From Alphaproteobacteria bacterium (GTDB taxonomy: Bacteria; Pseudomonadota; Alphaproteobacteria; Rickettsiales; SXRF01), in NCBI GenBank assembly GCA_046344715.1, contig JBKDKX010000004.1, positions 30,892-94,891 of the forward strand: a DNA stretch of 64,000 nt, read 5' to 3'. The notes beneath the pieces are model-generated. The model searched no databases. It had not been told where the DNA came from and saw only the letters and a program-made list of their open reading frames with translations. Shown here one piece after another: positions 8,181 through 64,000 of the stretch. Position 1 is the stretch's first letter. Each line of letters opens with the position of its first letter. Made by a program: the position numbers and the translations under genes.

Positions 8181-8181
8181 A

Positions 8182-10232: not shown

Positions 10233-10237
10233 ACCAC

Positions 10238-29903: not shown

Positions 29904-30644
29904 ATGACAGCAGATTATACAGCATTCCTTTCAAAGCTGCATAAGCGCAATCAGGAGATACACCAATCAAAACAGCACATTTGGCAATCAAAACTTGTGC
30001 TAAATCCGCTCTTGAATCAACTATCGCACCACAAGAAAGATATTTTCTTTATACAAATTGGTGCCTGTGACGGTGTGCTACACGACCCCATACGACCATT
30101 TATATTACGCTATGGCTGGAACGGTATTTTGGTAGAACCTTTGCCTGATTTATTTGAACAACTGAAAGAAAATTATGCTGGCAAGCATGGTCTTATATTC
30201 GAGAATATTGCTATTGCTGAATCTATAACGAAAAAATCGCTATACCGTATTGATCCTGCTATGCTTGATCAATTTCCAGAATGGGCAGCAGGTTGCGGTA
30301 CATTTATAGAGAATAGCAAAAATATTGCTACAAAGCCTGAAATGAAAAATCATCTTATTGCACAAGAGGTAGAAACCGTACCGCTTGAAACACTGCTTAC
30401 AAAGCATAACGTTTCAGCCATCGACATGTTACAGATTGATACAGAAGGATACGACTACAAAGTACTCAGGCAGGTGGATTTTTTACGCTACAAACCATTA
30501 GTGATAAACATGGAATTTGTGCACCTAACGGATGAAGAAAAAATGTCTACCTATGCCCTGCTGAACGAACAAGGCTACGCTTACCGCACACACCACCTTG
30601 ATATTATTGCTGCACAGAAAACATTTCTAGATACGTTATCTTGA
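29904..30644 (+). CDS. FkbM-family SAM-dependent methyltransferase
   Basis: 246 aa. ..FIQIGACDGVLHDPI.. followed by ..VEPLPDLFEQLKENY.. and ..MLQIDTEGYDYKVL.., the pattern typical of FkbM methyltransferases. Starts 6 nt after the lon stop. Confidence 0.7.
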   Translation: MTADYTAFLSKLHKRNQEIHQSKQHIWQSKLVLNPLLNQLSHHKKDIFFIQIGACDGVLHDPIRPFILRYGWNGILVEPLPDLFEQLKENYAGKHGLIFENIAIAESITKKSLYRIDPAMLDQFPEWAAGCGTFIENSKNIATKPEMKNHLIAQEVETVPLETLLTKHNVSAIDMLQIDTEGYDYKVLRQVDFLRYKPLVINMEFVHLTDEEKMSTYALLNEQGYAYRTHHLDIIAAQKTFLDTLS

Positions 30645-30646
30645 CG

Positions 30647-31501
30647 CTACTTGAACACCACCGTCTTCTGGCCATTGAGCAAAACGCGGTGTTCCACATG
30701 GTATTTAAGTGCACGCGAAAGCACCAGACATTCAATATCACGGCCAATCGCCACCAAATCTTCCACGCTATGGGCATGGTCTACCCGCGCCACTTCCTGC
30801 TCAATAATTGGCCCTTCATCAAGGTCGGTTGTTACATAATGCGCGGTTGCACCAATAATTTTAACCCCACGCGCATAGGCCTGTGCATAAGGCTTAGCGC
30901 CTTTGAAGCTAGGCAAAAACGAGTGATGAATATTAATCGCCTTACCAGAAAGAGCCGTGCACATCTCTGCTGACAATATCTGCATGTACCGCGCCAGCAC
31001 AACCACATCCACCGCATGATCATTTACAATCTCCAGAATCTTTTTCTCCTGCGCAGATTTATCACCATGAATCGGCAAATGATAAAACGGCACATTATGC
31101 CACTTCGCCACATGCTCTAAATCCGGATGGTTAGAGACAATCGCTGGAATATTGATGGTAAGCTGGCCTGTCTCATACCGGTAGAGTAAATCGTTCAGGC
31201 AGTGCCCTTCCTTAGAAACCATGATGAGCACACGACTCTTTTGCTGTTTGCCACGCATCTCCCACTGCATGGAAAATGGCTTGGCTACCACATCAGCAAA
31301 TTCAGCGCGGAGTTTTTCCTCCGCTGGCGCACCTGTTTCCAGCCCAAAATCAACACGCATGAAGAAACGCCCCGTGGATTCATCACCAAACTGGCCAGAT
31401 TCTACAATAAACCCGCAGCGGTCAGCCAGAAACCGGCTTACAGAAGCCACTATGCCGCGCACGTCTTTGCAGGAAAGTGTAAGAATATAGCGATTATCCA
31501 T
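30647..31501 (-). CDS. purU: Formyltetrahydrofolate deformylase
   Basis: 284 aa. N-terminal ACT domain (YILTLSCKDVRGIVASVSRFLA). Formyltransferase core ..INIHHSFLPSFKGAKPY.. and ..GATAHYVTTDLDEGPII... Confidence 0.9.
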   Translation of the reverse strand: MDNRYILTLSCKDVRGIVASVSRFLADRCGFIVESGQFGDESTGRFFMRVDFGLETGAPAEEKLRAEFADVVAKPFSMQWEMRGKQQKSRVLIMVSKEGHCLNDLLYRYETGQLTINIPAIVSNHPDLEHVAKWHNVPFYHLPIHGDKSAQEKKILEIVNDHAVDVVVLARYMQILSAEMCTALSGKAINIHHSFLPSFKGAKPYAQAYARGVKIIGATAHYVTTDLDEGPIIEQEVARVDHAHSVEDLVAIGRDIECLVLSRALKYHVEHRVLLNGQKTVVFK

Positions 31502-50667: not shown

Positions 50668-51090
50668 GTGTCCTTTACCCTACACCCACAACTTGCTGCT
50701 GATACCGCGCATATATGCGACCTAGAGATATGCCGCGTGTTACTGATGAACAACCAGCACTTTCACTGGCTGATACTGGTGCCCATGCGCGAGAATATCC
50801 GCGAACTACATGAGCTGGATGATGCGGATTATTCTAAGGTGATGGAAGAAGTCCGCAACGTATCAAAAAAACTAGCCTCTCATACGGGGGCACACAAAAT
50901 GAATGTAGCAGCACTAGGCAATATTGTGCCGCAGCTGCATATCCACATCATTGCCCGCTTTGAGAATGACCCCGCATGGCCAAAACCGGTGTGGGGATAC
51001 ACGGGATTCCTGCCTTATAATGAGACAATCCTGAAATCAAAAATCGCTGAAATAGCAGGATTATTCGGCTCAATCAGAACCATAAAATAG
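50668..51090 (+). CDS. HIT family hydrolase
   Basis: ORF track starts at 50632 inside purB. I prefer the GTG at 50668 (VSFTLHPQLAADT...). Histidine triad ..PQLHIHIIARF... Confidence 0.8.
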   Translation: MSFTLHPQLAADTAHICDLEICRVLLMNNQHFHWLILVPMRENIRELHELDDADYSKVMEEVRNVSKKLASHTGAHKMNVAALGNIVPQLHIHIIARFENDPAWPKPVWGYTGFLPYNETILKSKIAEIAGLFGSIRTIK

Positions 51091-51292
51091 CCCCATTATT
51101 TATTGTAACTCCCGAGAAAGCGAGAGGTTTATTCGTTAAAACAATTCCCCTGCTTTCGCAGGGGTGACAATAAGAGTTCGAACATTACAAAAATGTAATG
51201 CTTCCCCCATTGTAGTTTAATCTGGCTAATGTTAGAACTGCATTCGTTCCGCAAGGGAACGTTTAACAACTTAAATCTAAAAGGATTTTACA

Positions 51293-51499
51293 ATGAAAAC
51301 TCTTGCTCTCCTCGCCGTTCTCGGCCTCGTTGCTGCTCCTGCTTTCGCTTCTCCAGAAGCTGCTAAAGACGCTGCTGCTCCTGCTGCTAAAGAAGAAATT
51401 GCTAAAGATGCAGTTAAAGCTGAAGATGCTGCTAAAGCTGCTCCTGCTGCTGGCGAAAAAGCAGAAAAAGAAGTTAAAAAAGAAGAAGCTAAACACTAA
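51293..51499 (+). CDS. Small secreted Ala/Lys/Glu-rich protein
   Basis: 68 aa. Signal peptide MKTLALLAVLGLVAAPAFA, then AKDAAAPAAKEE.. low complexity. AAGGA-type RBS 8 nt upstream, heavy GCT codon use and a strong terminator downstream. Confidence 0.55.
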   Translation: MKTLALLAVLGLVAAPAFASPEAAKDAAAPAAKEEIAKDAVKAEDAAKAAPAAGEKAEKEVKKEEAKH

Positions 51500-51521
51500 T
51501 CTTTTTTGATTCTTGTATAAG

Positions 51522-51551
51522 AACGCGCTGGCTTAGGTCAGCGCGTTTTTT
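51522..51551 (+). terminator. Rho-independent terminator
   Basis: AACGCGCTG-GCTTAGGT-CAGCGCGTT followed by TTTTTT. Confidence 0.8.
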
Positions 51552-51693
51552 ATTGGCTAAAACGTGCGGCCGTCATTCCTGCAGAAAATCACACTATTTC
51601 GAGCCTATATTTATATAAATACGCGCGAGTGTTATGCCCCGGAAGGGGAAAAGTACAACATTGCATGAAGAAAATTCTGGCAATGACGGATAT

Positions 51694-52701
51694 TTACTGC
51701 AAATCCTTCTTAGCAGCAACATTCACGACATCGCAAAGCCACTGATGCAGGCTCTTGCCCGATGCTTTGGCTGCCTTGGTTGCCAAGCGTTTTACTTCCG
51801 GTGTGACACCTTCCATGTGCCCATAATATCGCGTGCGGTGCGTACCGCCACGTGGGCCAGGAATGTCGAAATCAAGGTTTGCATAGGGCGTGCCCTCGCC
51901 CACCTCAAAATCAATCACGTAAAATACTTCACCGATGATCCAACGCAGGCGGGTGTTACGCGCTTCAACCGGCATATGCTCCAGCGGCAGATGATACCTA
52001 TAATGCGGATTGGAATTCATGAGCACTTTGCCAAATTCCGTCTCGCGCAGCCACAGTGGCATACTCTCATCACCCATCACCACCTTGCCACCGACTTTAG
52101 TAACACGCACGGCTTCTTTAAGCGCACGGGCAATATCCGCAAAGGTATTGAGCCCACCGAAATGATAGGTGGCATCGAAATATTTATCGGGAAATGGTAA
52201 GTAGCTACCATTGGAAATAAAGAATGCCGGATTGGGTGTGGCATCCTTGAGTTTGGCAACCGCCTTATCAAAAAGTCCCGCCGAAATATCCTGCATAAAA
52301 AGCTGGCCGCCTTTTCCAAGCCGCTTCAAAATTAATTCTGAATCACGCCCACTGCCTGCACCAATCTCTAGCACTCTGGAATCCGGCTTCAGGCGCAGAT
52401 CATCAATCATGCTGTTTCGCGCCGCCGTTTCATCCACTTTGAACGTATCAAAGGTAAGCGGCAGGTATTCATCATATTCATCGGCTTTTTCATTATAATA
52501 TTGCCGAGCTTCGGCATCACTTTGACCCAGCACAAACGGATAAGTAAAATCCGGTACACCGGATTTTATGGGATAACGATTGCCATTACTGGCGATGAAC
52601 ACTCCCTCCAACACATTCCCGTTGTATTCTTTAGTAATTTCCAGTTTCAGCTTATCGCCAGTAGCAGGGCAACGATAATTCTCGGCCAGTTCTTTTTTCA
52701 T
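51694..52701 (-). CDS. Class I SAM-dependent methyltransferase with N-terminal Trm112-like zinc-ribbon-type domain
   Basis: 335 aa. N-terminus ..YRCPATGDKLKL...NRYPIKSGVPDF... SAM motif I ..RVLEIGAGSGRDS... C-terminal tail ..SLHQWLCDVVNVAAKK.. resembles RHH/HicB-antitoxin-type endings. Confidence 0.75.
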   Translation of the reverse strand: MKKELAENYRCPATGDKLKLEITKEYNGNVLEGVFIASNGNRYPIKSGVPDFTYPFVLGQSDAEARQYYNEKADEYDEYLPLTFDTFKVDETAARNSMIDDLRLKPDSRVLEIGAGSGRDSELILKRLGKGGQLFMQDISAGLFDKAVAKLKDATPNPAFFISNGSYLPFPDKYFDATYHFGGLNTFADIARALKEAVRVTKVGGKVVMGDESMPLWLRETEFGKVLMNSNPHYRYHLPLEHMPVEARNTRLRWIIGEVFYVIDFEVGEGTPYANLDFDIPGPRGGTHRTRYYGHMEGVTPEVKRLATKAAKASGKSLHQWLCDVVNVAAKKDLQ

Positions 52702-52708
52702 GCACTAC

Positions 52709-53383
52709 CTATTTTAGTGTGTTCATTTTCAGGAATTGTTCGCTAGTCAGGCGGAAACGCGGCGTTTCAGGGGCGATATACACACTGCCTTCCGGGGCAT
52801 CCCTGGTAATTAGCGCACCAGCACCAATCAGACTATGCGCGCCGATGCTGATTTCATGGCCGATGGTAGCACCAAGCCCCAGAAAACAATTATCACCAAC
52901 GCGGCAATTACCGCCAATAGTAACATTCGATGTTACCCAACAATAGTCACCCATTTGCGTATGATGACCGATGATAGCATTCGTCCAGATAAAACACCCG
53001 CTGCCGATTTTTGTGCGCGGCTGTAGCGGCTCACCGGACATAATGAAATTATTATCCCCCATAGGGCTTTTGATATGTTTATTTGCAGAACTGATATAAT
53101 TAGGAAGTGTATAGCCTTTCTTGCGTGCTTCTTCGCAGCGCACCGCACGCAGGCGGTTCATTTGCTGGTAACCCACGGCCACAAATAAATCATGCGACTG
53201 CGAAGGAAAATGCTTTTCCATCTCATCAAATGCTACCACCGGTAGGCCTTCGAACATACCACCCTGCGGTATATAGGCCTTATCCACCGCAAACCCCGCG
53301 ATGGAGTAATCACTATCAGTTGCAAAGTGATGCAGCACCACCTGCCCGATTTTACCAATGCCGAATATCACCAGTTTTTTCAT
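52709..53383 (-). CDS. NeuD/PglB/VioB-family hexapeptide-repeat acyltransferase
   Basis: 224 aa. N-terminal Rossmann-like MKKLVIFGIGKIGQVV. Left-handed beta-helix repeats ..IGHHTQMGDYCWVTSNVTIGGNCRVGDNCFLGLGATIGHEISIGAHSLIGAGALI... Confidence 0.8.
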   Translation of the reverse strand: MKKLVIFGIGKIGQVVLHHFATDSDYSIAGFAVDKAYIPQGGMFEGLPVVAFDEMEKHFPSQSHDLFVAVGYQQMNRLRAVRCEEARKKGYTLPNYISSANKHIKSPMGDNNFIMSGEPLQPRTKIGSGCFIWTNAIIGHHTQMGDYCWVTSNVTIGGNCRVGDNCFLGLGATIGHEISIGAHSLIGAGALITRDAPEGSVYIAPETPRFRLTSEQFLKMNTLK

Positions 53384-53384
53384 A

Positions 53385-54905
53385 CTACCCTAACCCTGCC
53401 AGTAATGCCTTGCGATCCACTTTACCGTTCGCATTTTTTGGCAAGCTCTCCATTATCATAATTTCATCAGGTATCATGTAAGACGGAAGCTTGCTGCGCA
53501 AACAGTTTTTTATGTCCTGCGCCGCCAGTTCTTGTGCAAGCGTTACAAACGCTACAATACGGCCAACTGACACACTCTTTCGGTGATACACCACGGCCCC
53601 TTGTGATACCTCAGCAAGCCCCGCCAGCGCAGCTTCAATTTCTTCCAGCTCGATGCGATACCCCATATGTTTTATCTGGTTGTCCTTGCGGCCTCTAAAA
53701 TGCAGGTATCCTGTGGTGGGATCTCGCCGTACCAGATCGCCTGTGCGGTAACACATCTGGCCAGATTCAGGTGATATAGGGTTTACCAGAAACGATACAC
53801 TGGTGCGCTCAGCATCATTATAATACCCAAGTGCCACTTGCGAACTGCACAGCAGCAACTCGCCAATCTCGCCATCTTTTACTGTTTTTCCTGATTCATC
53901 TAACACCAACCCATCAAATTCCTTGGCTAAGAATCCAAGCGGAGCCAGCATATCCATATCGGTAAAATCTTTGTCTGAAATAGCATAGGCAGAACAAATA
54001 CAAGTGCATTCCGTTGGTCCATACACATTCCAGAGTGTCGTCTGCTGTCCAAACATATTATAAAGCTTTTGCAGCTCGGTCTTGGCATAGCCTTCACCAC
54101 CAAAAACAATGGCGCGCATGGCGGGCCAGCTTTCTTTGGTGAGTGCTTTCATCGCCATCAGGTATATAAGCATGGAAGGTACAGAAAACCATAGGGTGCA
54201 GCCATTAAGTTGCTCAACTAACTTCTTGGCCTGCTTGAGCGTACCGCGCGTAACAGGCATTAAGCACGCACTATTAAAAAGTGATGCGGTAAAATCAAAC
54301 ACCGAATTATCAAAATAAAGTGGATTTACGCCCGATAATTTGTCCTGCGGCGTGATAGAGAATGTATCTCTCGCCCAATGGCAGAAATTCAGCATACTGC
54401 CATGAGAAATGGTAACACCCTTGGGAAATCCTGTGGAACCAGAAGTAAACATCAGGTAGGCAGGCTTGTCAGGCGATACGCTATGGATAACTTCCATTGC
54501 CAGCGGCTCATGCAAAGCCTCAAGCAAAGAAAAATGGTAAATCTCTGTATCCTTCCAGTGAAATTCTGCCTCGGAACTGATAATCAGGCCGGGCTTGCAC
54601 CTGTCCAATATTTTATCGAGCCGCTCGGTGGGGCTTTCCATATCCAACACCACATACGGTACACCCGCCTTGAGTGCGCCAAGCATGGAGGCATAGGTCC
54701 ACATATGCTTATCGGCAAAAATAGCCAGCGGACGCGATGGGCCAAGATTTTTATTCACTAGCAAGGCAGCAACGCAGTCGCTATGTTCATCGAGCGCACG
54801 GTACGAAACTGACTCACCACCCTCCATGCAAAGAGCGGTGTGTTCGGGATGTCTTCTGGCTACTTCCTTGAAACGTAGCCCCATATTAAAAATTGCTGTT
54901 GCCAT
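53385..54905 (-). CDS. Adenylate-forming enzyme (AMP-binding; DltA/amino-acid adenylation-like)
   Basis: 506 aa. Core motifs ..MFTSGSTGFPKG.., ..YGPTE.., ..YRTGDLV.., ..GRKDNQIKHMGYRIELEEIE.. and ..PKNANGKVDRKAL... Confidence 0.85.
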   Translation of the reverse strand: MATAIFNMGLRFKEVARRHPEHTALCMEGGESVSYRALDEHSDCVAALLVNKNLGPSRPLAIFADKHMWTYASMLGALKAGVPYVVLDMESPTERLDKILDRCKPGLIISSEAEFHWKDTEIYHFSLLEALHEPLAMEVIHSVSPDKPAYLMFTSGSTGFPKGVTISHGSMLNFCHWARDTFSITPQDKLSGVNPLYFDNSVFDFTASLFNSACLMPVTRGTLKQAKKLVEQLNGCTLWFSVPSMLIYLMAMKALTKESWPAMRAIVFGGEGYAKTELQKLYNMFGQQTTLWNVYGPTECTCICSAYAISDKDFTDMDMLAPLGFLAKEFDGLVLDESGKTVKDGEIGELLLCSSQVALGYYNDAERTSVSFLVNPISPESGQMCYRTGDLVRRDPTTGYLHFRGRKDNQIKHMGYRIELEEIEAALAGLAEVSQGAVVYHRKSVSVGRIVAFVTLAQELAAQDIKNCLRSKLPSYMIPDEIMIMESLPKNANGKVDRKALLAGLG

Positions 54906-54934
54906 AGTGCTATGAAATTTGGAATAAATAACAC

Positions 54935-55159
54935 ATGATTACAATACATAAATTAATAGCAGACGTATTAAGGTTACCCGAAGCATCAGTGACTGGCGAT
55001 ACCTCTATGGAAAATACTCAGGAATGGGATTCGCTCAAACATATTGAGATCATTGTCGCTATCGAACAACAGCTTGGTGTTGAACTGACCGGCGATGAGA
55101 TAGCTGATATGATATCCGTCAAAGCCATTGAAACCATTTTGCACAGGCACCGTCTATGA
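54935..55159 (+). CDS. Acyl/peptidyl carrier protein
   Basis: 74 aa. Phosphopantetheine site ..TQEWDSLKHIEIIVAIE... Divergent from the adenylase gene across a 29-bp spacer. Confidence 0.8.
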   Translation: MITIHKLIADVLRLPEASVTGDTSMENTQEWDSLKHIEIIVAIEQQLGVELTGDEIADMISVKAIETILHRHRL

Positions 55160-55908
55160 CACTGGAAGGCAAAACCATACTCATCACAGGGGCAGCTGGT
55201 GAGCTAGGCAGCAGGCTGATACAGGCCATGATTGCCGCTGGCGCAAAAGCCATTATCGGTATCGACGTGAACGCCAAAAAACTTGATACCATGAACAGTG
55301 TGCATTTTTCCGGTTTTGCCTGCGACCTTACAGACTACAAACAAGTGCATAGTTGCCTTGAGGGAGTATATGCCAAGTATCCTACCATTGATGTGCTTAT
55401 CAATAATGCAGGCATACTACACAGCGCACCGCTGGTGAATATTCTTGAGAAAGATGATGCTGATCTGTATCGTAATGCCGAGGATTGGTCACGCTGCCTC
55501 AACACCAACCTATCCTCTACTTTCTATGTGACGCAATTTGTCGCACGCAAAATGGTGAAAGCACGCACCCACGGCGTTATCCTCAATATCAGTTCGGTTT
55601 CAGCCGAAGGCACTGCCGGCCAGAGCGCCTATTCCGCCAGTAAAGCGGGTATGGAAGCACTAACGCAGGTATGGGCAAAAGAGCTGAGTGGGTTTGGTAT
55701 TCGTAGTATTGCAATAGCACCAGGCTATATGGATACCCCCTCTACCCATGCTGCCGTTTCCGAAGCACAACTTAAAGAAATCACCGGCCGTATTCCCATG
55801 AAAAAACTGGGCAATCCCAACAGCATTATTGAGGCCTGCCTGTTTACCATAAACAATGAATATATAAACGGCACCGTGCTGGAAGTGCATGGCGGGCTAA
55901 GGGTATAA
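55156..55908 (+). CDS. Short-chain dehydrogenase/reductase (FabG-like)
   Basis: 250 aa. TGAAGELGS cofactor motif, NNAGIL and catalytic YSASKAG. Confidence 0.88.
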   Translation: MTLEGKTILITGAAGELGSRLIQAMIAAGAKAIIGIDVNAKKLDTMNSVHFSGFACDLTDYKQVHSCLEGVYAKYPTIDVLINNAGILHSAPLVNILEKDDADLYRNAEDWSRCLNTNLSSTFYVTQFVARKMVKARTHGVILNISSVSAEGTAGQSAYSASKAGMEALTQVWAKELSGFGIRSIAIAPGYMDTPSTHAAVSEAQLKEITGRIPMKKLGNPNSIIEACLFTINNEYINGTVLEVHGGLRV

Positions 55909-56552
55909 TGACCAGTTGGACGAGTTATAAAAATCTCTACAAAGCACACGGATTTAAACGCGTGTGGACGCATTTTCGTGAGACTACACTGTTTGATATT
56001 CTAAACGGTGTAGATACAGGAAACTGGCGGCCATTATCAGAATATAGCCAGACCGATAGCGATATGAAGCACTATCAGGCTTCATTCACCCGCGAAGTTA
56101 TTAAATGTTTTAATCTGCTTAAATCTATTGCCAAGACTGAAAGTTTTACGTTTTATGATATTGGCTGCGGCAAAGGCAAAGTGCTGATTTTAGCAGCAAA
56201 ACATTTACCCTGTAGGGGTATCGTTGGGATTGAACTGGATGACCATCTTGCACATATTGCCAGTAATAATATGCAGAAACTTGGCCTCAAGGCCGAAATA
56301 ATCAGGGAGAATGCTCGCCAGTTCAATGATTACTCTAAACGATCGATTGTATATATCTGTGATCCATTCGGCAAGGAAACCTTGCAGCAGATGCTCGTAA
56401 ACATCTCGCAGGCGAGTGAAGATTGCTTTTTGGTATATAACAATCCTGTATATGAAGCACTTGTAGAAGCTGCCAGATTTAAGAAAGTCGGTGAAACCAC
56501 AGGCTGGCACAGTAATTACCACACCAGTATCTATCATTATAAAAGGCATTAA
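55908..56552 (+). CDS. Class I SAM-dependent methyltransferase (putative)
   Basis: 214 aa. Motif I ..FYDIGCGKGKVLILAA.. followed by ..GIELD... Confidence 0.65.
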   Translation: MTSWTSYKNLYKAHGFKRVWTHFRETTLFDILNGVDTGNWRPLSEYSQTDSDMKHYQASFTREVIKCFNLLKSIAKTESFTFYDIGCGKGKVLILAAKHLPCRGIVGIELDDHLAHIASNNMQKLGLKAEIIRENARQFNDYSKRSIVYICDPFGKETLQQMLVNISQASEDCFLVYNNPVYEALVEAARFKKVGETTGWHSNYHTSIYHYKRH

Positions 56553-56553
56553 C

Positions 56554-57477
56554 ATGGCTTGGGAAAAACGTGGATTTATTTACGGCGTATCACAGGAAGC
56601 CGACTGGATGAAATCCTACGCGCAAGTGCCAACTGCATTACTACTTAAAGATCGAATACGTATTTACATTACCGTACGACCAGAACAAAAAACCAGCAGG
56701 GTGACGTATGTGGATGTAGATATTCATGACCCCAAAAAAGTGCTATATGTGCACAAAGAGCCGATACTCCCCCTGGGTAAACCAGGCACGTTTGATGAGT
56801 TCGGTATTATGCCTGCGGCAGTACTGAATGTGGGAAATGAAGTGTGGTTATATACCACTGGCTGGCAACGCGGACAGACCGTACCATATCTGAATGCTGT
56901 AGGGCTTGCGATCAGCAAAGATGGCGGAAAAACCTTCACACGACCATATCAAGGCCCTGTGCTTTCTATTACACGTGATGAGCCATTTTCCTCCATGTCT
57001 CCTTCTATAGTGAAGCAAGATGATAAATGGGAAATGTGGTATGGATCTGGTGTGGATTGGGTAAAAACCGGCGATAAATATGAGCCGCTCTATTACATTT
57101 ATTATGCCTATTCTGAAAACGGATTGGATTGGGTGCGCCCCAATATCTGCTGCATTCCAGGCGCAACAGCTGGTGAGGCAACGACACGTCCCAGCGTATT
57201 TTATGAAGATGGGGTGTATCACATGTGGTTCAGCTATCGCGGCAGCCATGATTTCCGTGGTGGCGCAGGCAGTTACCGTATTGGTTACGCCTCATCCACG
57301 GATGGAAAAATATGGAACCGCGATGATTCAAAAGCCGGAATTCCGATAAGTGATGAAGGCTGGGATTCGCAAATGGTGGCATACCCCAATATCATAGATA
57401 CCCCTGGGGGTAGATATATGTTCTATAACGGTAATGATTTCGGCGCACACGGCTTCGGCTATGCGGTGTGGAAGTAA
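56554..57477 (+). CDS. Uncharacterised protein, five-bladed beta-propeller (GH43/32/68/130-like) suspected
   Basis: ORF track starts at 56491. I prefer the ATG at 56554 (MAWEKRGFIYG...). Repeated blade-like patterns (..VWLYTTGW.., ..KWEMWYGSG.., ..GLDWVRP.., ..VYHMWFSY.. and ..DGKIWNR..). Fold assignment is by eye only. Confidence 0.45.
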   Translation: MAWEKRGFIYGVSQEADWMKSYAQVPTALLLKDRIRIYITVRPEQKTSRVTYVDVDIHDPKKVLYVHKEPILPLGKPGTFDEFGIMPAAVLNVGNEVWLYTTGWQRGQTVPYLNAVGLAISKDGGKTFTRPYQGPVLSITRDEPFSSMSPSIVKQDDKWEMWYGSGVDWVKTGDKYEPLYYIYYAYSENGLDWVRPNICCIPGATAGEATTRPSVFYEDGVYHMWFSYRGSHDFRGGAGSYRIGYASSTDGKIWNRDDSKAGIPISDEGWDSQMVAYPNIIDTPGGRYMFYNGNDFGAHGFGYAVWK

Positions 57478-57480
57478 CGC

Positions 57481-58545
57481 ATGGAATCTGCAACGCTCAT
57501 TATGTGCTGCGCCATGCCCGATGCGCTGGCATACGCAAAGAAAGCCAACGAGCGCGGCGAGCGTGTTATTGCTACATCGTCACTGAAATATGATGAGTCC
57601 GCACAGTATTATACTCACTGGGAATGGTTACCAAGTGTCTATGATGTCGATTTTTGCACTGCGCTGGATAGATTAGTAAAGCTACACAACATTACGCGTA
57701 TATTCTGCCCGCATAATATTGCACATTATTCACTGCTGGAATTACAGAAACAAGATAAGCTCCATATACCCCTAGTGGGTAAACCGCCTATTGAGGAACA
57801 AACGGAATATATGCAAAACTTGCTCAATGAAGCAACGCAAATGCAGCATTTTATTCAGACCATTGCATGCGAGGAGCCTCTGGCACAGCATATTATCGCA
57901 GCCATTCTAAAACAGACAGAAGCGACCTTTGGTGAATCAAACCCAAGCAAACTGGCCGCCATGATGGCCATTTTCGGAACGCTGCCAAAAGGTGATGTAG
58001 TAGAAGTTGGCTCATGGTGGGGGAAAACTGCTGTGGCACTTGCCATGCTTGCACAGCATTATGAAACGGGCGCAGTGCTCTGCGTGGACCCGTGGTCAAC
58101 CGATGTTGCCATTCAGAAAGATTCCCCCGCCCTTATGCAAACCATGCCGGGCATTACGGATTGGGAAACAGTGTTTGGCGGATTTATTATACATACATCT
58201 TGTGTGGCTCAGAACGGACGATTCAATTATCTGCGCCTTCCTTCTGTAAATGCAGAAAAACAATACCAAAACACTAAAACTATCCATTCACAGGAATTTG
58301 GTACAACAGATTACAAAGGCAAAATTGCTCTTATACATATAGATGGAAATCATGATTATGCGTCAGTGAAAGCAGATTATGAAGCATGGAAGCCGCATGT
58401 GCTATCAGGCGGATGGATTGTCCTTGATGATTATGTGTGGCTGCATGGCGCCGGCCCACAAGAACTTGGCGATGATATTTTAGCTAATGAGAGAATTGTA
58501 CACAGCTTTGTTGCGGGGAAAGCACTGTTCCTACAAATACCTTAA
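57481..58545 (+). CDS. Two-domain protein with C-terminal class I methyltransferase-like domain (Methyltransf_24/TylF-like)
   Basis: 354 aa. ..GDVVEVGSWWGKTAVALA.. and ..ALIHIDGNHDYASVKADYEAWKPHVLSGGWIVLDDY... The N-terminal domain of about 170 aa is unassigned. Confidence 0.6.
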   Translation: MESATLIMCCAMPDALAYAKKANERGERVIATSSLKYDESAQYYTHWEWLPSVYDVDFCTALDRLVKLHNITRIFCPHNIAHYSLLELQKQDKLHIPLVGKPPIEEQTEYMQNLLNEATQMQHFIQTIACEEPLAQHIIAAILKQTEATFGESNPSKLAAMMAIFGTLPKGDVVEVGSWWGKTAVALAMLAQHYETGAVLCVDPWSTDVAIQKDSPALMQTMPGITDWETVFGGFIIHTSCVAQNGRFNYLRLPSVNAEKQYQNTKTIHSQEFGTTDYKGKIALIHIDGNHDYASVKADYEAWKPHVLSGGWIVLDDYVWLHGAGPQELGDDILANERIVHSFVAGKALFLQIP

Positions 58546-59429
58546 GGCGCGCGATACGCCGGAAAAAAACGAACTGGTACATTGAATTTTCTGGCATTCA
58601 CCAATTGCTGGTATTTCTCTTTATCCAGAATTGCACCACAAATGTACGATTCCGCCGTATCGTTTGAGAATCCTTTTTTGAAACGCGCTAGCCCATCATC
58701 GCTACCCACGCTATTGCCAGCACCACCACCAAAATTGAGTAGTTTTCTACCTGAAAAATACCGCAGGGAGGTATCATTTACCGCATAGGCTGCACGTGAT
58801 TCATACCCCTTGTCGTTCGATGCCACTAAATGGCTATGCACATACTCCCCATCATCTGCCCAAATATGGCAGGATACTAACTCATCACCCATCCATGCAC
58901 CAATGGCTACCATGCCTTGAATACCTGCAATCTGTTGATGATGCGCAAGCGGGAATGCGTGGAGGCCAGAGAGGCCCAGTTTTGCTATCAGGGCATCATA
59001 TAACTCTGCCCACTCATGCACATGTTTTCGTAAATCAAGCACATCCACTTTAACGTGTTTATACGCAGTTTTTACGGCACGTTTATGATGACTACCATAT
59101 ATCATCTCACCTTTTTCAGGGCGGTAAAGATAATGCGGCTTAAAACTGTCCACCGTATCAAAATGCTCTTTAAGTGTATTCATATGTAGACGATGAAAAT
59201 CATCCAGCACCAGTACTACAGATACCAACCCAACATCACGCAGACGCGCCAATCCACCAGCAATATCTGCATTTTTATTCAGTGGGGTGATGGGATATAT
59301 TCCGGCTGCATCTTGTAACCCTGCGGAAATTTCCCTGAGCATTACACCCCCTCCCCACTCGGGCACTTCAAACGGCTTACCCCAATGCGCGAGTGATTCA
59401 GCAAATGCTACGGTGGCATATGGGTGCAT
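58542..59429 (-). CDS. FemAB-like / Acetyltransf_6-type GNAT-fold protein (putative aminoacyl or acyl transferase)
   Basis: 295 aa. C-terminal ..LLNFGGGAGNSVGSDDGLARFKKGFSN.. resembles the FemAB/BioF2-like family ending. Confidence 0.5.
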   Translation of the reverse strand: MHPYATVAFAESLAHWGKPFEVPEWGGGVMLREISAGLQDAAGIYPITPLNKNADIAGGLARLRDVGLVSVVLVLDDFHRLHMNTLKEHFDTVDSFKPHYLYRPEKGEMIYGSHHKRAVKTAYKHVKVDVLDLRKHVHEWAELYDALIAKLGLSGLHAFPLAHHQQIAGIQGMVAIGAWMGDELVSCHIWADDGEYVHSHLVASNDKGYESRAAYAVNDTSLRYFSGRKLLNFGGGAGNSVGSDDGLARFKKGFSNDTAESYICGAILDKEKYQQLVNARKFNVPVRFFPAYRAP

Positions 59430-61672
59430 TATTGCGCAACTTCTGAATAAATACGCTTTAAGTGCGATATGAACTCCGGCACGGGCGCATAATTATCAAA
59501 TATACTATCATTATTCTTGCGAATATTTTCCTGCGCTTGCTTATAAAATGTTTTATCATTGGCAAGTTTTACAATGATATCAATATACCCATCAACGGTA
59601 TCTGCCGTCATCTCCAGCATATTCATCATTTTGAACAGGCCATAGGCACCGCGGCCGCGCAGGAATTCTCCCGGCTTGGTTACAAATGGCACTTCTGAAC
59701 CAAGCAACTGAAATGCTGTGGTACCAAATGAGAAATGCAACGCATCAAACACAGCGTCCATCGCCCGCATAGTATGAATAAACTTATCGGTGGCAGCAAA
59801 TGGCACAAAGATAATGCGTTCAGCCAATTCACTGCCTACTGACGTTGCAAACCGTTTTTCAAGTTCTTGTCGCCAAATAATTTTTCCTGCATCAAATAAA
59901 ATAATACGCGCTTTAATATCTTTTTTGAGTATCCCAGAAAACACGATATCCATATCTGGATGCAGTTTAAACAATAGCACAGGACATGTATAAAGATGCA
60001 CATCCCCATCCGGCAAACCTAGTTCTGCTCGTGATATAGGGGTGCAGGGTATATATTGCTTATTTACAACCGCGAGAAAATCAATGTCTTTGAATAACTT
60101 TTCTGTGTAATGTTTTTCAGCACCATCGGCTTCCATACAGGCGGTAGTGAGGAAATAATCCATATTGGGAATACCTGTAGTCAGTGGATGCCCACCCATA
60201 ACCGCCTGAACAGGCGCTAGCCTTGCAAGCGCCAACAGGTAGCTTGGCAGACGCAGCCCTATATCAAGATAAATCAATACATCAATTTCTTCATCGGCAA
60301 CGATTTGCTGGGCTGCTGGAAGACTGATTGGCAGCGGCACATATTTTTTTACATCGCTGGATAGTGTCTGCACTTTATCATTTACCCGAGCTGAATGCGC
60401 AAAAATAATGACTTCATATTCTGAGTCTTTAGCAAGGCTTGTAATAAGTGGGCTAAAGAACTGAGTGATCAGTTTGGAATGAAAAAACTCAGAAACGAAG
60501 CCAATCCTGATTTTCTTGCCAGCAACCCTTGGTGCAAGACAGTGCGCAGCGGTATAATTTATTGAAGGACAACATGTGATAAAGAATTCCGCAAGCTTCT
60601 GCATAAATTCCTTATTATCCAAACCGTGATAGCCCTGATAAAATGGCAAGTATAATCCCTGTCGCTCAGGCTCATGCAGCACAATTTTATCATCTATCAT
60701 CTTCTGCAAACCTTGCATAAAACGATCACGCCACTGCTTGATTTCTTCCATATCATGCGGAATTACAGGCAACAGGAACGCATCCGCCACACGGCCACGC
60801 ACACTCTGCGGATGTTTCTGGAGCAGCAAACTGAATGTCTCTCTAGCTTTTTCTATTTCTCCCCTTCCTTCACAGTTCACAGCATATAAAAATAATACTT
60901 CCTCATGATCAGGATGGATAATACGAGCGCGTTCCAATAACTCCTGCGCTTTGTCAAACTCATGATTAAGATTGTATATTCCGGCAAACTTACACAGCAT
61001 GTCCACTGCATGTGGAGTTAATTCCAGCCCCTTGGCTATATCGGATTCCACCTGTTCGTTTAGACCTACAGATTCATATCGCGCCATACCACGATAGAAA
61101 AACGCTCTGGCGTTCTTTACATCCGCGGCAATCGCCTTGGAGAAATAATCAATTGCCGCTGGTATATTACGTTTTTCATGCAGACAATCCCCAAGGTTAG
61201 AATATATCTGCGAAATATACCCGGGCGGCTTAAGCTCAAGCGCTTTCAGCAAGAGATTTTCCATGTCGTCAAATTTGCGTTGCGCTTTGGCAATAAGGGA
61301 AGCGGTAAAATAAAATAATCCATTTTTTTTATTCAGATCTATCGCCTTGCTAATATACCCCATAGCAGTATCTAGCTGTTTTCGTTGCATACAAATATAC
61401 GCTGCAAGATTCAACGCATCTGTATTGTTTGGCTGAACGCGCAGAACACTTGCAAGCGCAGCTTCTGCAATCTCCAGACTACCCGCATTTAATGCAGCAG
61501 CAGCTTGCTGCAATGTAAGGCCAATATTAATTGCAGGTGTTGCCACAACATTCGTTGTAAACTTGTCTATACAGCATTTCTTGAATTTCTTACCACTGCC
61601 ACACGGGCATGGATCATTACGATCAACCGGAGATGCCTGCGCTGAAGAATTAGCCATATTTTCGCGCATCAC
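59429..61672 (-). CDS. SEC-C motif / TPR repeat / GT41 (OGT, SPINDLY-like) glycosyltransferase
   Basis: 747 aa. SEC-C zinc motif DPCPCGSGKKFKKCC (DNA 61571-61615). TPR-like repeats span about residues 45-330. The C-terminal half ..KIRIGFVSEFFHSKLITQFFSPLI.. and ..VHLYTCPVLLFKLHPDMD.. is typical of bacterial SPINDLY-family O-GlcNAc-transferase homologs. Confidence 0.7.
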   Translation of the reverse strand: MMRENMANSSAQASPVDRNDPCPCGSGKKFKKCCIDKFTTNVVATPAINIGLTLQQAAAALNAGSLEIAEAALASVLRVQPNNTDALNLAAYICMQRKQLDTAMGYISKAIDLNKKNGLFYFTASLIAKAQRKFDDMENLLLKALELKPPGYISQIYSNLGDCLHEKRNIPAAIDYFSKAIAADVKNARAFFYRGMARYESVGLNEQVESDIAKGLELTPHAVDMLCKFAGIYNLNHEFDKAQELLERARIIHPDHEEVLFLYAVNCEGRGEIEKARETFSLLLQKHPQSVRGRVADAFLLPVIPHDMEEIKQWRDRFMQGLQKMIDDKIVLHEPERQGLYLPFYQGYHGLDNKEFMQKLAEFFITCCPSINYTAAHCLAPRVAGKKIRIGFVSEFFHSKLITQFFSPLITSLAKDSEYEVIIFAHSARVNDKVQTLSSDVKKYVPLPISLPAAQQIVADEEIDVLIYLDIGLRLPSYLLALARLAPVQAVMGGHPLTTGIPNMDYFLTTACMEADGAEKHYTEKLFKDIDFLAVVNKQYIPCTPISRAELGLPDGDVHLYTCPVLLFKLHPDMDIVFSGILKKDIKARIILFDAGKIIWRQELEKRFATSVGSELAERIIFVPFAATDKFIHTMRAMDAVFDALHFSFGTTAFQLLGSEVPFVTKPGEFLRGRGAYGLFKMMNMLEMTADTVDGYIDIIVKLANDKTFYKQAQENIRKNNDSIFDNYAPVPEFISHLKRIYSEVAQ

Positions 61673-62780
61673 CCTTGAGTGCTTTGAGTCCGGCTATTAT
61701 CGCGTCGCATACCCTGTCCTGCGCCTCTTCTTTCAAATCAATCGCCGAAGGAATACCAAGCACAGATTGCCCAAGCCACTGTGTACTTGGCAACTCGCCA
61801 TGCACCATACACGCGCGATACGCCGGATGCACATGACAACCTGTTTCCCACCAGCGGCGTGTATCAATGCCTTGTTCTTTTAAGCATTGTAACATTGGCA
61901 CGGCCTGCTCCGGCACGATGATGTTACTTGTGCTCGTCACCCACTCCGGCTGCACCCAACAACTAATGCCATGGGCTTCTAATTTTTCCTTATAACGCAG
62001 CTGCACTTTTGCCCATGCGGCGCGTATGTCATTCCATTGGTCAAGCACCGCCATGGCAACTGCTGCATTATATTCACTTGGTTTGGCATTAATGGCGATG
62101 CGATGCGAAAGTCGGTCATTCTCAAAACCAAAATTGATAATCCGGCGCAGTCGGAACGCCACATCGGCACTTTTGGTTAACATTAGGCCACCTTCACCGA
62201 TGCCACAAATCTTTGTGGCGTGCAGGCTTATCATCACCGGCGTGCGCCCGATTTTCATGGCGCCACTTACCATACTGTCAAAGGCCGCCGCCGCATCGAT
62301 CACCACGGGAATACCGGTTTCTTCGGTAAACCTGTCCCACTGTGCAACATCCAGCGGCGCGCCGAAGGCAGACACCGGCATAACAGCACTCACTGGCTTT
62401 TTAAGCGATTTAATATGCTTCTTAACACTGTCAACGGTAATGACCTGTGATTCTTTATCCACATCAATAAAGCAAGGCTCAAGACCTGCCGCTAATGCTG
62501 CCGCAGGTGTCGCCGTAAACGTCCATGACGGCATGATGCATAGCCCACCGCGCTTAACCTCTAACGCCTGAAGTGCAACGGTGAGACCCAACGTACCATT
62601 GGCCACCATCAACACGCTATCTGGGGTAGCTTTGAGCAATTCGGCAAGGCGCTTTTCAAACGCAACGACCAACGGTCCGTTATTACCATACCAGCGGTTC
62701 TCATCAATCTGCTGGAGATAGGGTAAAATCGCTGAAATTTCAGGAAGTTTTGGTTTAAGAACCGGAATAACACCCTGCAT
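61650..62780 (-). CDS. DegT/DnrJ/EryC1/StrS family sugar aminotransferase
   Basis: 376 aa. ..NGTLGLTVALQAL.. and PLP-Lys region ..MISLHATKICGIGEGGLM... Confidence 0.88.
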   Translation of the reverse strand: MQGVIPVLKPKLPEISAILPYLQQIDENRWYGNNGPLVVAFEKRLAELLKATPDSVLMVANGTLGLTVALQALEVKRGGLCIMPSWTFTATPAAALAAGLEPCFIDVDKESQVITVDSVKKHIKSLKKPVSAVMPVSAFGAPLDVAQWDRFTEETGIPVVIDAAAAFDSMVSGAMKIGRTPVMISLHATKICGIGEGGLMLTKSADVAFRLRRIINFGFENDRLSHRIAINAKPSEYNAAVAMAVLDQWNDIRAAWAKVQLRYKEKLEAHGISCWVQPEWVTSTSNIIVPEQAVPMLQCLKEQGIDTRRWWETGCHVHPAYRACMVHGELPSTQWLGQSVLGIPSAIDLKEEAQDRVCDAIIAGLKALKGDARKYG

Positions 62781-63014
62781 ATGACTCCCTTTATTTTATT
62801 ATCTCTTGTCAGAGCAAAATCTATGCCCAAAGACAATTCACACCATAGACAGGAAGATTGCAAGGAGGGAGTTCTTGAACTTTCAAGAGGGATTTGATGC
62901 TTGCCTGCTGGCTTCGCACCGTCTAACTGCAAAATTGTGAACCAAGGTTCTGCATCCCTCACACACAAAAAAGCATGCATGATCAGCCTTAATACAGCTG
63001 ATGAGGTATGTTTG

Positions 63015-63089
63015 TGGTGGCTCGAGAGGGATTTGAACCCCCGACCAAGGGATTATGATTCCCCTGCTCTACCACTGAGCTACCGAGCC
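63015..63089 (-). tRNA. tRNA with CAT anticodon (elongator Met type; Ile2-lysidine not excluded)
   Basis: Reverse complement is GGCTCGGTAGCTCAGTGGTAGAGCAGGGGAATCATAATCCCTTGGTCGGGGGTTCAAATCCCTCTCGAGCCACCA. The acceptor stem pairs, position 1-72 is a G-C pair (not initiator-like) and CCA is encoded. Confidence 0.85.
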
Positions 63090-63211
63090 ACGAGGGATAA
63101 GGGATTAGGCAGGTATGCCCTAAAAATCAAGTAAAAACTGATGAGAAGCTGTTGAGTTATCGTTTTATATCCTGTAAGGACTGGAAAACCACAACTTTTG
63201 AGGAAAAGCGC

Positions 63212-64000
63212 ATGACCAAGCCATTTACTATTGGCCTCATACAGATGCAGTACCCAGGAAGCCCGAAGGCAAGCCTGGATAAGGCTTGCAGCATGCTGGA
63301 ACAGGCAGCGAAACAGGGTGTGCAGGTGGCATGCCTGCCAGAGTTGTTCCTGACTGATTATTTCTGCCAGAAGCTGGACGCCAATGTGTTCAACCTTGCC
63401 GAGCCGGTGGACGGGCCTACCAACAAGGCACTGGCGGCTGTTGCCAAGAAAACCGGTATGGTGATTATCAGCTCGATTTTTGAAAAGGCCGCTTCAGGGC
63501 TTTATTACAACACAGCTGTCATTATTGAAAAAGATGGCAGCATTGCTGGTACATACCGCAAAATGCATATTCCGCATGACCCGCTATTTGAAGAAAAATA
63601 TTATTTCGCGCCCGGAGATCAGGGCTTCAAGATGCACAATACAAGCGCAGGGAAACTAGGCGCACTGGTGTGCTGGGATCAATGGTATCCGGAAGGCGCC
63701 CGCCTTACTGCCATGCAAGGCGCGGATGTACTATTTTACCCGACTGCCATTGGCTGGCACCCATCCGAAAAAGCCGAATGGGGCGAAACACAGGTGGATA
63801 ACTGGATCACCATCCAGCGTTCACATGCGATTGCCAACGGCGTGTATGTTGCTGCCGTAAACCGGATCGGCCATGAAGTAACAGTGGGTGACGGGCTTGA
63901 ATTCTTCGGCAATTCCTTCATCTGCGATCCGTATGGTCGCATCCTTACGCAGGCCAGCCATAATAAAGAAGAAATTATCACCGCCGTGGTTGACCCTGCG
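63212..64000 (+). CDS. aguB: N-carbamoylputrescine amidase (carbon-nitrogen hydrolase family); 3' end runs off the window
   Basis: Absent from ORF track because it is open-ended. Own translation: MTKPFTIGLIQMQYPGS...ACLPELFLTDYFC...YRKMHIPHDPLFEEKYYFAPGD...GALVCWDQWYPEGARL...YPTAIGW... (Glu-Lys-Cys triad context). Open to base 64000. Confidence 0.85.
   Translation, partial: MTKPFTIGLIQMQYPGSPKASLDKACSMLEQAAKQGVQVACLPELFLTDYFCQKLDANVFNLAEPVDGPTNKALAAVAKKTGMVIISSIFEKAASGLYYNTAVIIEKDGSIAGTYRKMHIPHDPLFEEKYYFAPGDQGFKMHNTSAGKLGALVCWDQWYPEGARLTAMQGADVLFYPTAIGWHPSEKAEWGETQVDNWITIQRSHAIANGVYVAAVNRIGHEVTVGDGLEFFGNSFICDPYGRILTQASHNKEEIITAVVDPA

Follow-up and report, generated by a model that had tools for sequence, protein, structure and literature searches.

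The closest characterised pathway to the gene island described here is the viosamine island of Pseudomonas syringae pv. tabaci (vioA, vioM, vioT, vioS, vioB, vioR and acp), which glycosylates flagellin with N-(3-hydroxybutanoyl)-2-O-methyl-viosamine (PMC3927599). The island in question occupies positions 51694-62780 of a 64,000-nucleotide stretch (the window) of contig JBKDKX010000004.1, from an alphaproteobacterial assembly placed in the Rickettsiales, and we lean towards reading it as a cytoplasmic protein O-glycosylation system with flagellin as its most probable acceptor. Both islands encode a DegT-type 4-aminotransferase, a VioB-family acyltransferase, a carrier protein, a FabG-like reductase, a methyltransferase and a dedicated transferase, and both lie among housekeeping genes, apart from the flagellar operon. 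The product in P. syringae is an N-acyl, O-methyl 4-amino-4,6-dideoxyglucose on protein, and a product of the same kind would be made in the window. The acyl chain in P. syringae comes from a ketoacyl synthase of type III (VioS), whereas the window encodes a DltA-like adenylase and no ketosynthase domain in any of the 11 proteins; likewise, the P. syringae transferase VioT (1173 amino acids, aa) adds the sugar to a rhamnose primer, whereas the window encodes a protein with a SEC-C motif, tetratricopeptide repeats (TPR) and a domain of glycosyltransferase (GT) family 41. A Fem-like transferase, a propeller resembling glycoside hydrolases (GH) and two more methyltransferases are further features of the window that the P. 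syringae island lacks.

Several other systems share parts of this inventory. The Burkholderia cenocepacia gene flmQ (BCAL0111) is predicted to encode a flagellin glycosyltransferase, and a strain without it has non-glycosylated flagellin (PMC4462625). FlmQ has a TPR and GT41 architecture like that of the window protein (confirmed for the B. latens homologues only), but it is approximately 21% identical over the catalytic domain and is without the SEC-C motif, and its gene is inside the flagellar locus beside fliC with no carrier-protein, Fem-like or propeller genes nearby, unlike the window. The sugar on Burkholderia flagellin is reportedly an rmlB-dependent N-acyl viosamine. Enterobacterial flagellin glycosylation islands, for which the description is bioinformatic only, encode an acyl carrier protein (ACP), a CaiC-type AMP ligase, FabG, DegT, methyltransferases and formyltransferases (PMC4875605). 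They share with the window the theme of ACP, ligase, FabG, DegT and methyltransferase as well as cassette-like variability among strains, but they are located between flagellar genes and their ligases are annotated as fatty-acid-type; moreover, tetratricopeptide proteins are not mentioned in that paper (PMC4875605), whereas the window has a TPR-GT41 protein. The type B flagellin locus of Clostridium difficile (CDR20291_0241-0247) contains a FemAB-superfamily gene and an FdtB-like DegT-family aminotransferase gene, and its glycan ends in a peptidylamido sugar (PMC5207246). The window likewise combines a FemAB-like gene (of putative role in C. difficile too) with a DegT-family aminotransferase gene, but the C. 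difficile locus differs in its GT2 glycosyltransferases, its 3-amino sugar, and its ATP-grasp and ornithine-cyclodeaminase genes, which stand in the place of an adenylase and a carrier protein. FlmG of Caulobacter crescentus is a soluble protein that recognises flagellins through an N-terminal TPR domain and, still in the cytoplasm, glycosylates them with a C-terminal GT-B domain (PMC7591256). Its catalytic domain is called only 'GT-B' in that paper, and its likeness to the window protein is judged from its published description. FlmG is the mechanistic template for the transfer step inferred in the window. Unlike the window protein, FlmG transfers pseudaminic acid from a CMP-sugar, is 596 aa long and is without the SEC-C motif. 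Finally, the rfbKLMNO tetronate branch of Vibrio cholerae O1 is said to belong to an O-antigen pathway and to consist of an ACP, an AMP ligase, an alcohol dehydrogenase, a LuxC/E-like reductase and an acetyltransferase that act on GDP-perosamine; its likeness to the window would lie in the carrier, the ligase and the beta-helix acyltransferase.

The original prediction, made from the sequence alone, had not recognised this combination of genes. In one respect the combination is familiar: islands of the N-acyl-aminodideoxyhexose type for glycosylating a protein, probably flagellin, are a known kind, and the window holds a variant of the N-acyl-viosamine-type flagellin islands. Four features appear to be new: the DltA-like/carrier-protein arm feeding a VioB-type acyltransferase; a conserved, uncharacterised module of Fem-like, propeller and Methyltransf_24 proteins; the SEC-C motif on a glycosyltransferase; and the presence of such an island, at a distance from any flagellar gene, in a clade labelled 'Rickettsiales'. 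The evidence comprises domain identities, predicted folds, conservation of the block and gene-neighbourhood associations, and the chemistry is read from family or fold. The 11 open reading frames (ORFs) of the island, taken from the ORF list of the window, have the strands, order and packing into three units that the original prediction had described, and each domain that it had named was confirmed by profile searches and two structure models:

51694-52701, minus strand: 335-aa class I S-adenosylmethionine (SAM) methyltransferase with a Trm112-like N-terminal ribbon (Methyltransf_25, Methyltransf_11 and Ubie_methyltran matches)
52709-53383, minus strand: 224-aa left-handed beta-helix N-acyltransferase of the NeuD/PglB/VioB family (TIGR03570, Hexapep, PglD_N)
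53385-54905, minus strand: 506-aa stand-alone DltA-like adenylation enzyme (AMP-binding, AMP-binding_C, TIGR01733)
54935-55159, plus strand: 74-aa carrier protein (PF00550, 34.9 bits against a cut-off of 20.8; serine motif EWDSL)
55156-55908, plus strand: 250-aa FabG-like short-chain dehydrogenase/reductase (SDR; adh_short, adh_short_C2 and KR matches)
55908-56552, plus strand: 214-aa small SAM methyltransferase (weak DOT1, Methyltransf_25 and PrmA matches)
56554-57477, plus strand: 307-aa five-bladed beta-propeller of the GH137/GH43/GH32/GH130 fold (structure model; no Pfam match)
57481-58545, plus strand: 354-aa protein with a C-terminal Methyltransf_24 domain (PF13578, 69 bits)
58542-59429, minus strand: 295-aa FemX-fold protein with tandem GCN5-related N-acetyltransferase (GNAT) domains (structure model; no Pfam match)
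59429-61672, minus strand: 747-aa (probably 742-aa) SEC-C/TPR/GT41 protein (SEC-C, TPR, PF13844)
61650-62780, minus strand: 376-aa DegT/DnrJ/EryC1 pyridoxal phosphate-dependent aminotransferase (PF01041, 205 bits)

The 747-aa protein begins with a SEC-C zinc motif (CPCGSGKKFKKCC) that fits the pattern perfectly, followed by approximately eight TPR repeats and a C-terminal GT41 domain. The original prediction had set the match of the C-terminal half to GT41 as a test. The match to PF13844 reaches 66.4 bits (cut-off 25), its best stretch being profile positions 358-527 only; residues 378-720 align with residues 194-524 of XcOGT, 161-492 of the Thermobaculum O-GlcNAc transferase (OGT) and 481-814 of SPINDLY, which takes in both lobes of the GT-B fold, and residues 546-742 align with human OGT. 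Lys842 and His920-Thr921-Thr922 of human OGT take part in nucleotide-phosphate binding. The equivalent of Lys842 is kept in the window protein (LFKLHP versus LYKIDP; K569, nearly invariant across the family), as is the Thr-Thr pair, with His920 replaced by Gly (GTT). Judged by its sequence, the protein is genuinely a TPR-GT41 enzyme, and it is proposed to act as a protein O-glycosyltransferase. Its gene overlaps both the DegT gene and the Fem-like gene, and a motif pattern search found the strict SEC-C motif kept in its closest orthologues. No paper mentioning SEC-C together with TPR glycosyltransferases was found in a literature search, and the SEC-C motif is not known to have a function outside SecA. 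The N-terminal module of SEC-C and TPR is also found fused to sulfotransferase (PF00685) and methyltransferase domains in other bacteria (proteins P0078, P0085, P0087 and P0088), which suggests that it may be a common targeting module for differing protein-modifying enzymes.

The enzymes predicted to make the sugar resemble those that act on 4-amino sugars. The DegT protein has PLP_DesI as its best NCBIfam match (171 bits, under the equivalog cut-off of 650) and 3ju7, then DesI (2po3), as its best solved relatives; it is proposed to be a dTDP-4-keto-6-deoxyglucose 4-aminotransferase, the regiochemistry not being readable from the family match. The 224-aa acyltransferase matches TIGR03570 at 165.6 bits, above the cut-off of 160.8, and its best solved relatives are PerB, Neisseria PglB, PglD and VioB (7txp), all of them N-acetyltransferases of 4-amino sugars. 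It is proposed to move a carrier-bound acyl or aminoacyl group onto the 4-amine of the sugar. Among the related loci that were retrieved (designated here by L numbers), rmlA and rmlB occur inside the clusters of L010, L024 (Brevundimonas), L037, L044, L048 and L052, and therefore dTDP-4-keto-6-deoxyglucose is indicated as the precursor. Because of these genes, and because DesI is nearest to the DegT protein and PerB, PglD and VioB are nearest to the acyltransferase, the sugar substrate is probably a dTDP-4-amino-4,6-dideoxyhexose.

The 506-aa adenylase matches TIGR01733 (amino-acid adenylation) at 330 bits against a cut-off of 317, and falls under the cut-offs of both DltA models (TIGR01734, 314.8 versus 559.85; NF003417, 327 versus 476); it is similar both to DltA and to the adenylation domains of nonribosomal peptide synthetases. 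No DltB-like or DltD-like genes are present in the island, which is not a Dlt system. In adenylation domains, the equivalent of Asp235 binds the amino group of the substrate and the equivalent of Lys517 is catalytic. A single alignment to LgrA, read by hand, places FDNSV at the former position and NGKVDR at the latter, and because the adenylase retains both of these residues, which are typical of amino-acid-activating domains, its substrate is probably an amino acid rather than a fatty acid. The enzyme is proposed to load this amino acid onto the 74-aa carrier protein, in which the serine of EWDSL is the site of phosphopantetheine attachment. The stop codon of the carrier-protein gene overlaps the start codon of the SDR gene (ATGA, 55156-55159), indicating translational coupling; the SDR matches NF006072 (3-ketoacyl-ACP reductase) at 211 bits, below the cut-off.

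The 295-aa and 307-aa proteins could be classified only by structure. The 295-aa protein has no Pfam match at E <= 0.01, including the families PF02388 and PF13480, and a weak match to the FemX NCBIfam model; a few of its homologues show weak precomputed matches to PF13480 or PF02388. Its structure model, with a mean predicted local distance difference test (pLDDT) score of 94.9, has the tandem-GNAT fold of FemX, in agreement with the FemAB-like assignment of the original prediction, and its top matches in the PDB are FemX (E 1.7e-13, template modelling (TM) score 0.66-0.69), Sba18/Sbb17 and the aminoacyl-phosphatidylglycerol synthase domains of MprF. FemX, the streptothricin enzymes Sba18/Sbb17 and the MprF synthase domains are all aminoacyl-tRNA-dependent transferases. 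On the strength of its modelled fold, the 295-aa protein is proposed to be an aminoacyl-tRNA-dependent transferase with either the amino sugar or the aminoacyl group carried by that sugar as its acceptor. The 307-aa protein had been called a beta-propeller, and its model (pLDDT 94.3) is a five-bladed one; BT_0996 is the best fold match (TM score 0.76), and many enzymes of GH32, GH43 and GH130 match at E <= 1e-8. There is no Pfam match to this propeller, and a local match of 42 bits was obtained only to a GH130 phosphorylase model (cut-off 450). The propeller family is large (2464 homologues found, approximately 50% identical across phyla, some of them named 'GH43/DUF377' by JGI), no functional annotation for it exists in the sources searched, and its members occur together with DegT and GT41 genes in L018, L019, L022, L024, L025 and L028.

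Three methyltransferases complete the set. The 354-aa protein has an N-terminal domain of approximately 170 aa with no recognised fold and no relative of solved structure, and a C-terminal Methyltransf_24 domain that resembles TylF/CmcI and is probably a sugar O-methyltransferase; full-length orthologues are 35-40% identical in L010, L019, L024 and L025. The 335-aa methyltransferase matches NF038101 (Trm112_arch) over residues 1-52 at 30 bits, below the cut-off of 77, and has orthologues that are 80-88% identical in L005, L007 and L013 and 54% identical in L020. The 214-aa methyltransferase has a weak match to the protein-lysine N-methyltransferase model NF041081.

These assignments can be arranged into a pathway. 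RmlA and RmlB encoded elsewhere in the genome would supply dTDP-4-keto-6-deoxyglucose, and the DegT enzyme, by its family, would aminate C4 to give a dTDP-4-amino-4,6-dideoxyhexose of the viosamine type. The DltA-like enzyme would adenylate an amino acid and charge the 74-aa carrier protein, the coupled FabG-like SDR may alter the carrier-tethered group, and the NeuD/VioB-type acyltransferase would pass this group to the 4-amine of the sugar. The FemX-fold protein, if its fold is a guide to its chemistry, would then add another amino acid from aminoacyl-tRNA to form a peptidyl-amido sugar, and the three methyltransferases would methylate oxygen and/or nitrogen atoms. Finally, the TPR domain of the GT41 enzyme would hold the acceptor while its GT-B domain transfers the finished sugar to serine or threonine. 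The sequence of amination, carrier-dependent N-acylation, methylation and direct transfer by GT41 had already been put forward in the original prediction, and draws support from the likeness of the enzymes to DesI and to PerB/PglD/VioB and from the rmlA and rmlB genes of related clusters. To that model can be added that the acyl group is probably an amino acid, that a second acyl route probably runs through aminoacyl-tRNA by way of the Fem-like enzyme, and that the acceptor, which had not been named, is likely to be flagellin.

A metagenome scan with the Fem-like family yielded 80 loci, and co-occurrence was counted in the 30 loci of at least 9 kb. The Fem-like gene is accompanied by DegT in 28 of the 30, by a family of 340-350 aa (unk340) in 25, by a small GNAT protein in 21, by the Methyltransf_24 protein in 17, by the propeller in 15, by TPR-GT41 in 15, and by rmlB in seven; an adenylase or carrier protein was found in none (0/30). 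By these counts, a core made up of the Fem-like, DegT, propeller, Methyltransf_24 and TPR-GT41 genes is widespread, and the acyl group is provided by at least two alternative arms: one is adenylase/carrier/NeuD, and the other consists of GNAT and unk340. The window has the adenylase/carrier arm instead of unk340. The unk340 gene is directly upstream of the Fem-like gene in the 25 long loci that have it (for example, at 8982-10004 of L025 and 8952-10004 of L024). It has no Pfam match and no relative of solved structure; a sequence search of solved structures returned nothing usable for the unk340 family, the 295-aa protein or the 354-aa protein. A profile comparison of unk340 with the Fem-like family proved negative, and unk340 was no longer considered a second Fem paralogue. 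In the cluster of L010, rmlA, rmlB, DegT, Methyltransf_24, methyltransferase, WbqC, Fem-like, formyltransferase and SEC-C/TPR/GT41 genes are found together. Two more families recur in related islands and are both absent from the window, namely a methyltransferase of approximately 246 aa and a PhyH-type Fe(II)/2-oxoglutarate dioxygenase of approximately 264 aa (L071, 11501-13072, and 8-13 other loci).

Flagellin enters the argument by association. Three independent loci place TPR-GT41 amino-sugar clusters beside flagellin genes. L071, on a 1.07-Mb contig with the alphaproteobacterial regulators flbT and flaF, has, in this order, genes for a TPR-GT41 protein that shares 28% identity with that of the window and for unk340, Fem-like, GNAT, methyltransferase, PhyH and DegT proteins, and immediately downstream of them two flagellin genes, flbT and flaF. 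L025/L039 (Rhodocyclaceae) has, again in order, SDR, unk340, Fem-like, GNAT, Methyltransf_24, propeller and DegT genes, two TPR-GT41 genes and flagellin, the Fem-like, propeller and Methyltransf_24 proteins being 46%, 50% and 35% identical, respectively, to those of the window. L026 (Burkholderia latens, 1-10259) has four TPR-GT41 genes in a row, together with genes of the epimerase family and of Methyltransf_14, beside fliT-fliD-fliC. Guilt by association thus makes flagellin the most probable acceptor in this organism, and an unbiased clustering of neighbouring ORFs found no other recurrent candidate acceptor.

Several observations weigh against this assignment or leave gaps in the pathway. 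No flagellin homologue or other flagellar gene exists in the 64-kb window, and flagellin is within 10 kb in only two of the 30 long Fem-like loci. The GT41 proteins adjacent to flagellin in L025 and L026 are 21-24% identical to the window protein, and the strict SEC-C pattern was not found in them. The sole hint of flagellation in the clade is a chemoreceptor gene near the island in L009. Homologues of rmlA and rmlB are absent from the whole 64-kb window, and therefore the precursor must come from elsewhere in this organism; no phosphopantetheinyl transferase gene was seen in the window either. The specificity code of the adenylase, read by hand from the LgrA alignment as D-N-F-F-V-G-V-C-I-K, was matched to no named code. 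No chemistry is assigned to the SDR, the propeller or the N-terminal domain of the 354-aa protein, nor to the order in which the two acylations would occur.

Some of the same observations would be explained if the sugar pathway were as proposed and the acceptor were not flagellin but a pilin, an adhesin or a wider range of proteins, with the SEC-C motif perhaps directing the enzyme to SecB, the ribosome or the membrane before export. This is a real possibility, though a less probable one. It would account for the absence of flagellar genes from the window and of flagellin from the neighbourhood of 28 of the 30 long loci, and for a SEC-C motif that is strict in the closest orthologues and was not detected by its pattern in the flagellin-adjacent proteins of L025 and L026. 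A prepilin peptidase gene is a few genes away in L005 and L007, the fusion of SEC-C and TPR to sulfotransferase and methyltransferase domains would fit a broader role, and GT41 enzymes are known to modify pilin in Synechococcus (PMC9306852) and the HMW1 adhesin (PMC3012730). However, the clustering of neighbours offered no recurrent acceptor besides flagellin, the three lineages with TPR-GT41 amino-sugar clusters beside flagellin are independent, and targeting by SEC-C is speculation. A bolder version, which we regard as improbable, is that the DltA-like/carrier arm and the FemX-fold enzyme build a peptidyl chain on the dTDP-amino sugar by a new aminoacylated nucleotide-sugar route in which the propeller is biosynthetic, and that SEC-C recruits GT41 to SecB or the ribosome so that exported proteins are glycosylated before translocation in a lineage that may have no flagella. 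If true, the new route and the recruitment by SEC-C would amount to a general cytoplasmic O-glycosylation system for Sec substrates.

We consider it decidedly unlikely that the island is a cassette for tailoring a lipopolysaccharide or capsule sugar, with its glycosyltransferases encoded elsewhere and the TPR-GT41 protein in an unrelated or regulatory role. DegT, NeuD/VioB, formyltransferase and WbqC are classic O-antigen families, and the tetronate branch of V. cholerae O1, with its ACP, ligase and acyltransferase, is reportedly an O-antigen pathway. However, TPR-GT41 was the most constant partner in the neighbour-ORF clustering (31 of 47 non-redundant loci), its gene overlaps the DegT and Fem-like genes in the window, and characterised GT41 enzymes all have protein acceptors. 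Profile searches found no flippase, polymerase, initiating transferase or nucleotidyltransferase among the 11 proteins or the flanking genes, so that the island is not a self-contained O-antigen or capsule locus, as the original prediction had maintained. That prediction had also held that it would fail if orthologous clusters always sat inside complete polysaccharide loci; wzx, wzy, wzz and initiating transferase genes are not among the annotated neighbours of any retrieved locus, although no search was aimed at them. Least probable of all is a small-molecule natural product, aminoglycoside-like or peptidyl-sugar, made by loading of the nonribosomal peptide synthetase kind and by a peptide synthase that uses aminoacyl-tRNA: such a product would suit the carrier protein and the stand-alone adenylation domain, as well as the fold match to Sba18/Sbb17, which aminoacylate streptothrisamine, but condensation and thioesterase domains, exporter genes and resistance genes are absent, TPR-GT41 is constantly linked, some relatives adjoin flagellin, and the island sits among housekeeping genes in small-genome metagenome assemblies.

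Protein O-glycosylation in the cytoplasm, of flagellin and other proteins, affects motility, surface properties and immune recognition, and its sugar chemistry is diverse and mostly unlinked to genes. In the island, a protein glycosylase of the GT41 type is linked to a donor pathway that is unusual in its amino-acid adenylase and carrier protein, its enzyme of FemX fold and its propeller of hydrolase fold. The module of Fem-like, DegT, propeller and Methyltransf_24 genes is present in many Alphaproteobacteria and Betaproteobacteria, including Brevundimonas, which may allow tests of it in culture. If the Fem-like enzyme aminoacylates a nucleotide sugar with aminoacyl-tRNA as donor, tRNA-dependent chemistry would extend to protein glycans, and peptidylamido sugars such as that of C. 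difficile type B flagellin would be explained. GT41 enzymes that accept dTDP-deoxyamino sugars could also serve glycoengineering.

The block is conserved, as the original prediction had asked of related genomes. An NCBI protein of 'MAG: Alphaproteobacteria bacterium' matches the GT41 protein at 100% identity, and the closest relatives of the GT41 protein, from a genome scan with a 9-sequence GT41 alignment, are in metagenome-assembled genomes labelled 'uncultured Rickettsiales'. The block is at the same chromosomal site in L013, L005, L007 and L009 (GT41 identity of 74, 70, 53 and 43%, respectively), bordered by HIT/lyase genes on one side and by tRNA-Met, carbon-nitrogen hydrolase and agmatine-deiminase genes on the other; tRNA-Met borders the island directly in L005, L007 and L013 and is more distant in L009. 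L028, also labelled 'Rickettsiales', has the same gene set at another chromosomal site. Eight of the 11 island genes have counterparts of 25-54% identity, likewise at a different site, in L020 (10001-20961), labelled 'uncultured Heliobacteriaceae', which represents either horizontal transfer to a distant lineage or an error of binning or labelling. Within the clade the cassette varies: L005 has a sulfotransferase gene (PF09037; 14095-14895) in place of the 354-aa methyltransferase gene, and L009 is without the 335-aa methyltransferase, the 214-aa methyltransferase and the Fem-like gene, having instead a sugar-type formyltransferase, a WbqC protein (5073-5894 and 12955-13605 for these two) and a short Methyltransf_24 protein. 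Because tailoring genes are exchanged within one island among close relatives, the glycan probably differs between strains.

The left minus-strand unit is transcribed in the order adenylase, acyltransferase and 335-aa methyltransferase; the plus-strand unit in the order carrier protein, SDR, 214-aa methyltransferase, propeller and Methyltransf_24 protein; and the right minus-strand unit in the order DegT, SEC-C/TPR/GT41 and Fem-like protein. The divergent units are separated by only 29 bp (54906-54934), a spacing also present in L005 and L008. The convergent units share 4 bp (58542-58545), and overlapping start and stop codons are found at several gene junctions within the island. Promoters and terminators must therefore sit within coding sequence. 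Scans of 51000-63300 for promoters and terminators gave no excess over shuffled sequence (25 versus 23.9 and 16 versus 13.0, respectively), and the limits of the operons therefore rest solely on gene packing. The start of the propeller gene is most likely 56554 (307 aa) rather than 56491, its homologues being 307-309 aa long, and the GT41 gene probably begins with the ATG at 61657 (742 aa), the start that L001 and P0001 also have.

A tRNA-Met (CAT) gene (63015-63089, minus strand, identified by ARAGORN) borders the island on the right, with a carbon-nitrogen hydrolase gene beyond it. The left flank also consists of housekeeping genes (rplT, pheST, a gene of the adenylosuccinate lyase family and one for a HIT protein), and the nuo operon, clpXP, lon, tig, purU and dxs are farther from the island. 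G+C content dips slightly over the island (0.43-0.48 versus 0.48-0.51). A search for direct repeats did not detect the tRNA 3' end at the far border, and no integrase was found. Because neither an integrase nor an att-type repeat was found, the block is taken to be a long-standing resident of the site in the clade. It is ancestral there, and the notion of a recently acquired tRNA island is therefore not supported. A 15-nt near-repeat (14/15) of part of the tRNA-Met gene is found between it and the DegT start (62883-62897 versus 63022-63036, 139 bp apart), and could be an old integration scar or chance.

Beside the island, a 68-aa ORF (51294-51499, plus strand) encodes a signal peptide and, after it, a repeat rich in Ala, Lys and Glu (...SPEAAKDAAAPAAKEE...). 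At the corresponding position, L001, L005, L007 and L009 have unannotated ORFs of 67-84 aa (matched by position, not by sequence comparison). The product is unlikely to be a target of O-glycosylation because its mature part has only one serine. Elsewhere in the window, a formyltransferase-like match at 30647-31501 proved to be PurU and not a sugar formyltransferase. FkbM-family methyltransferases are often linked to glycan methylation, and an orphan gene of this family, with no obvious partner genes, is present between lon and purU (29904-30644, plus strand).

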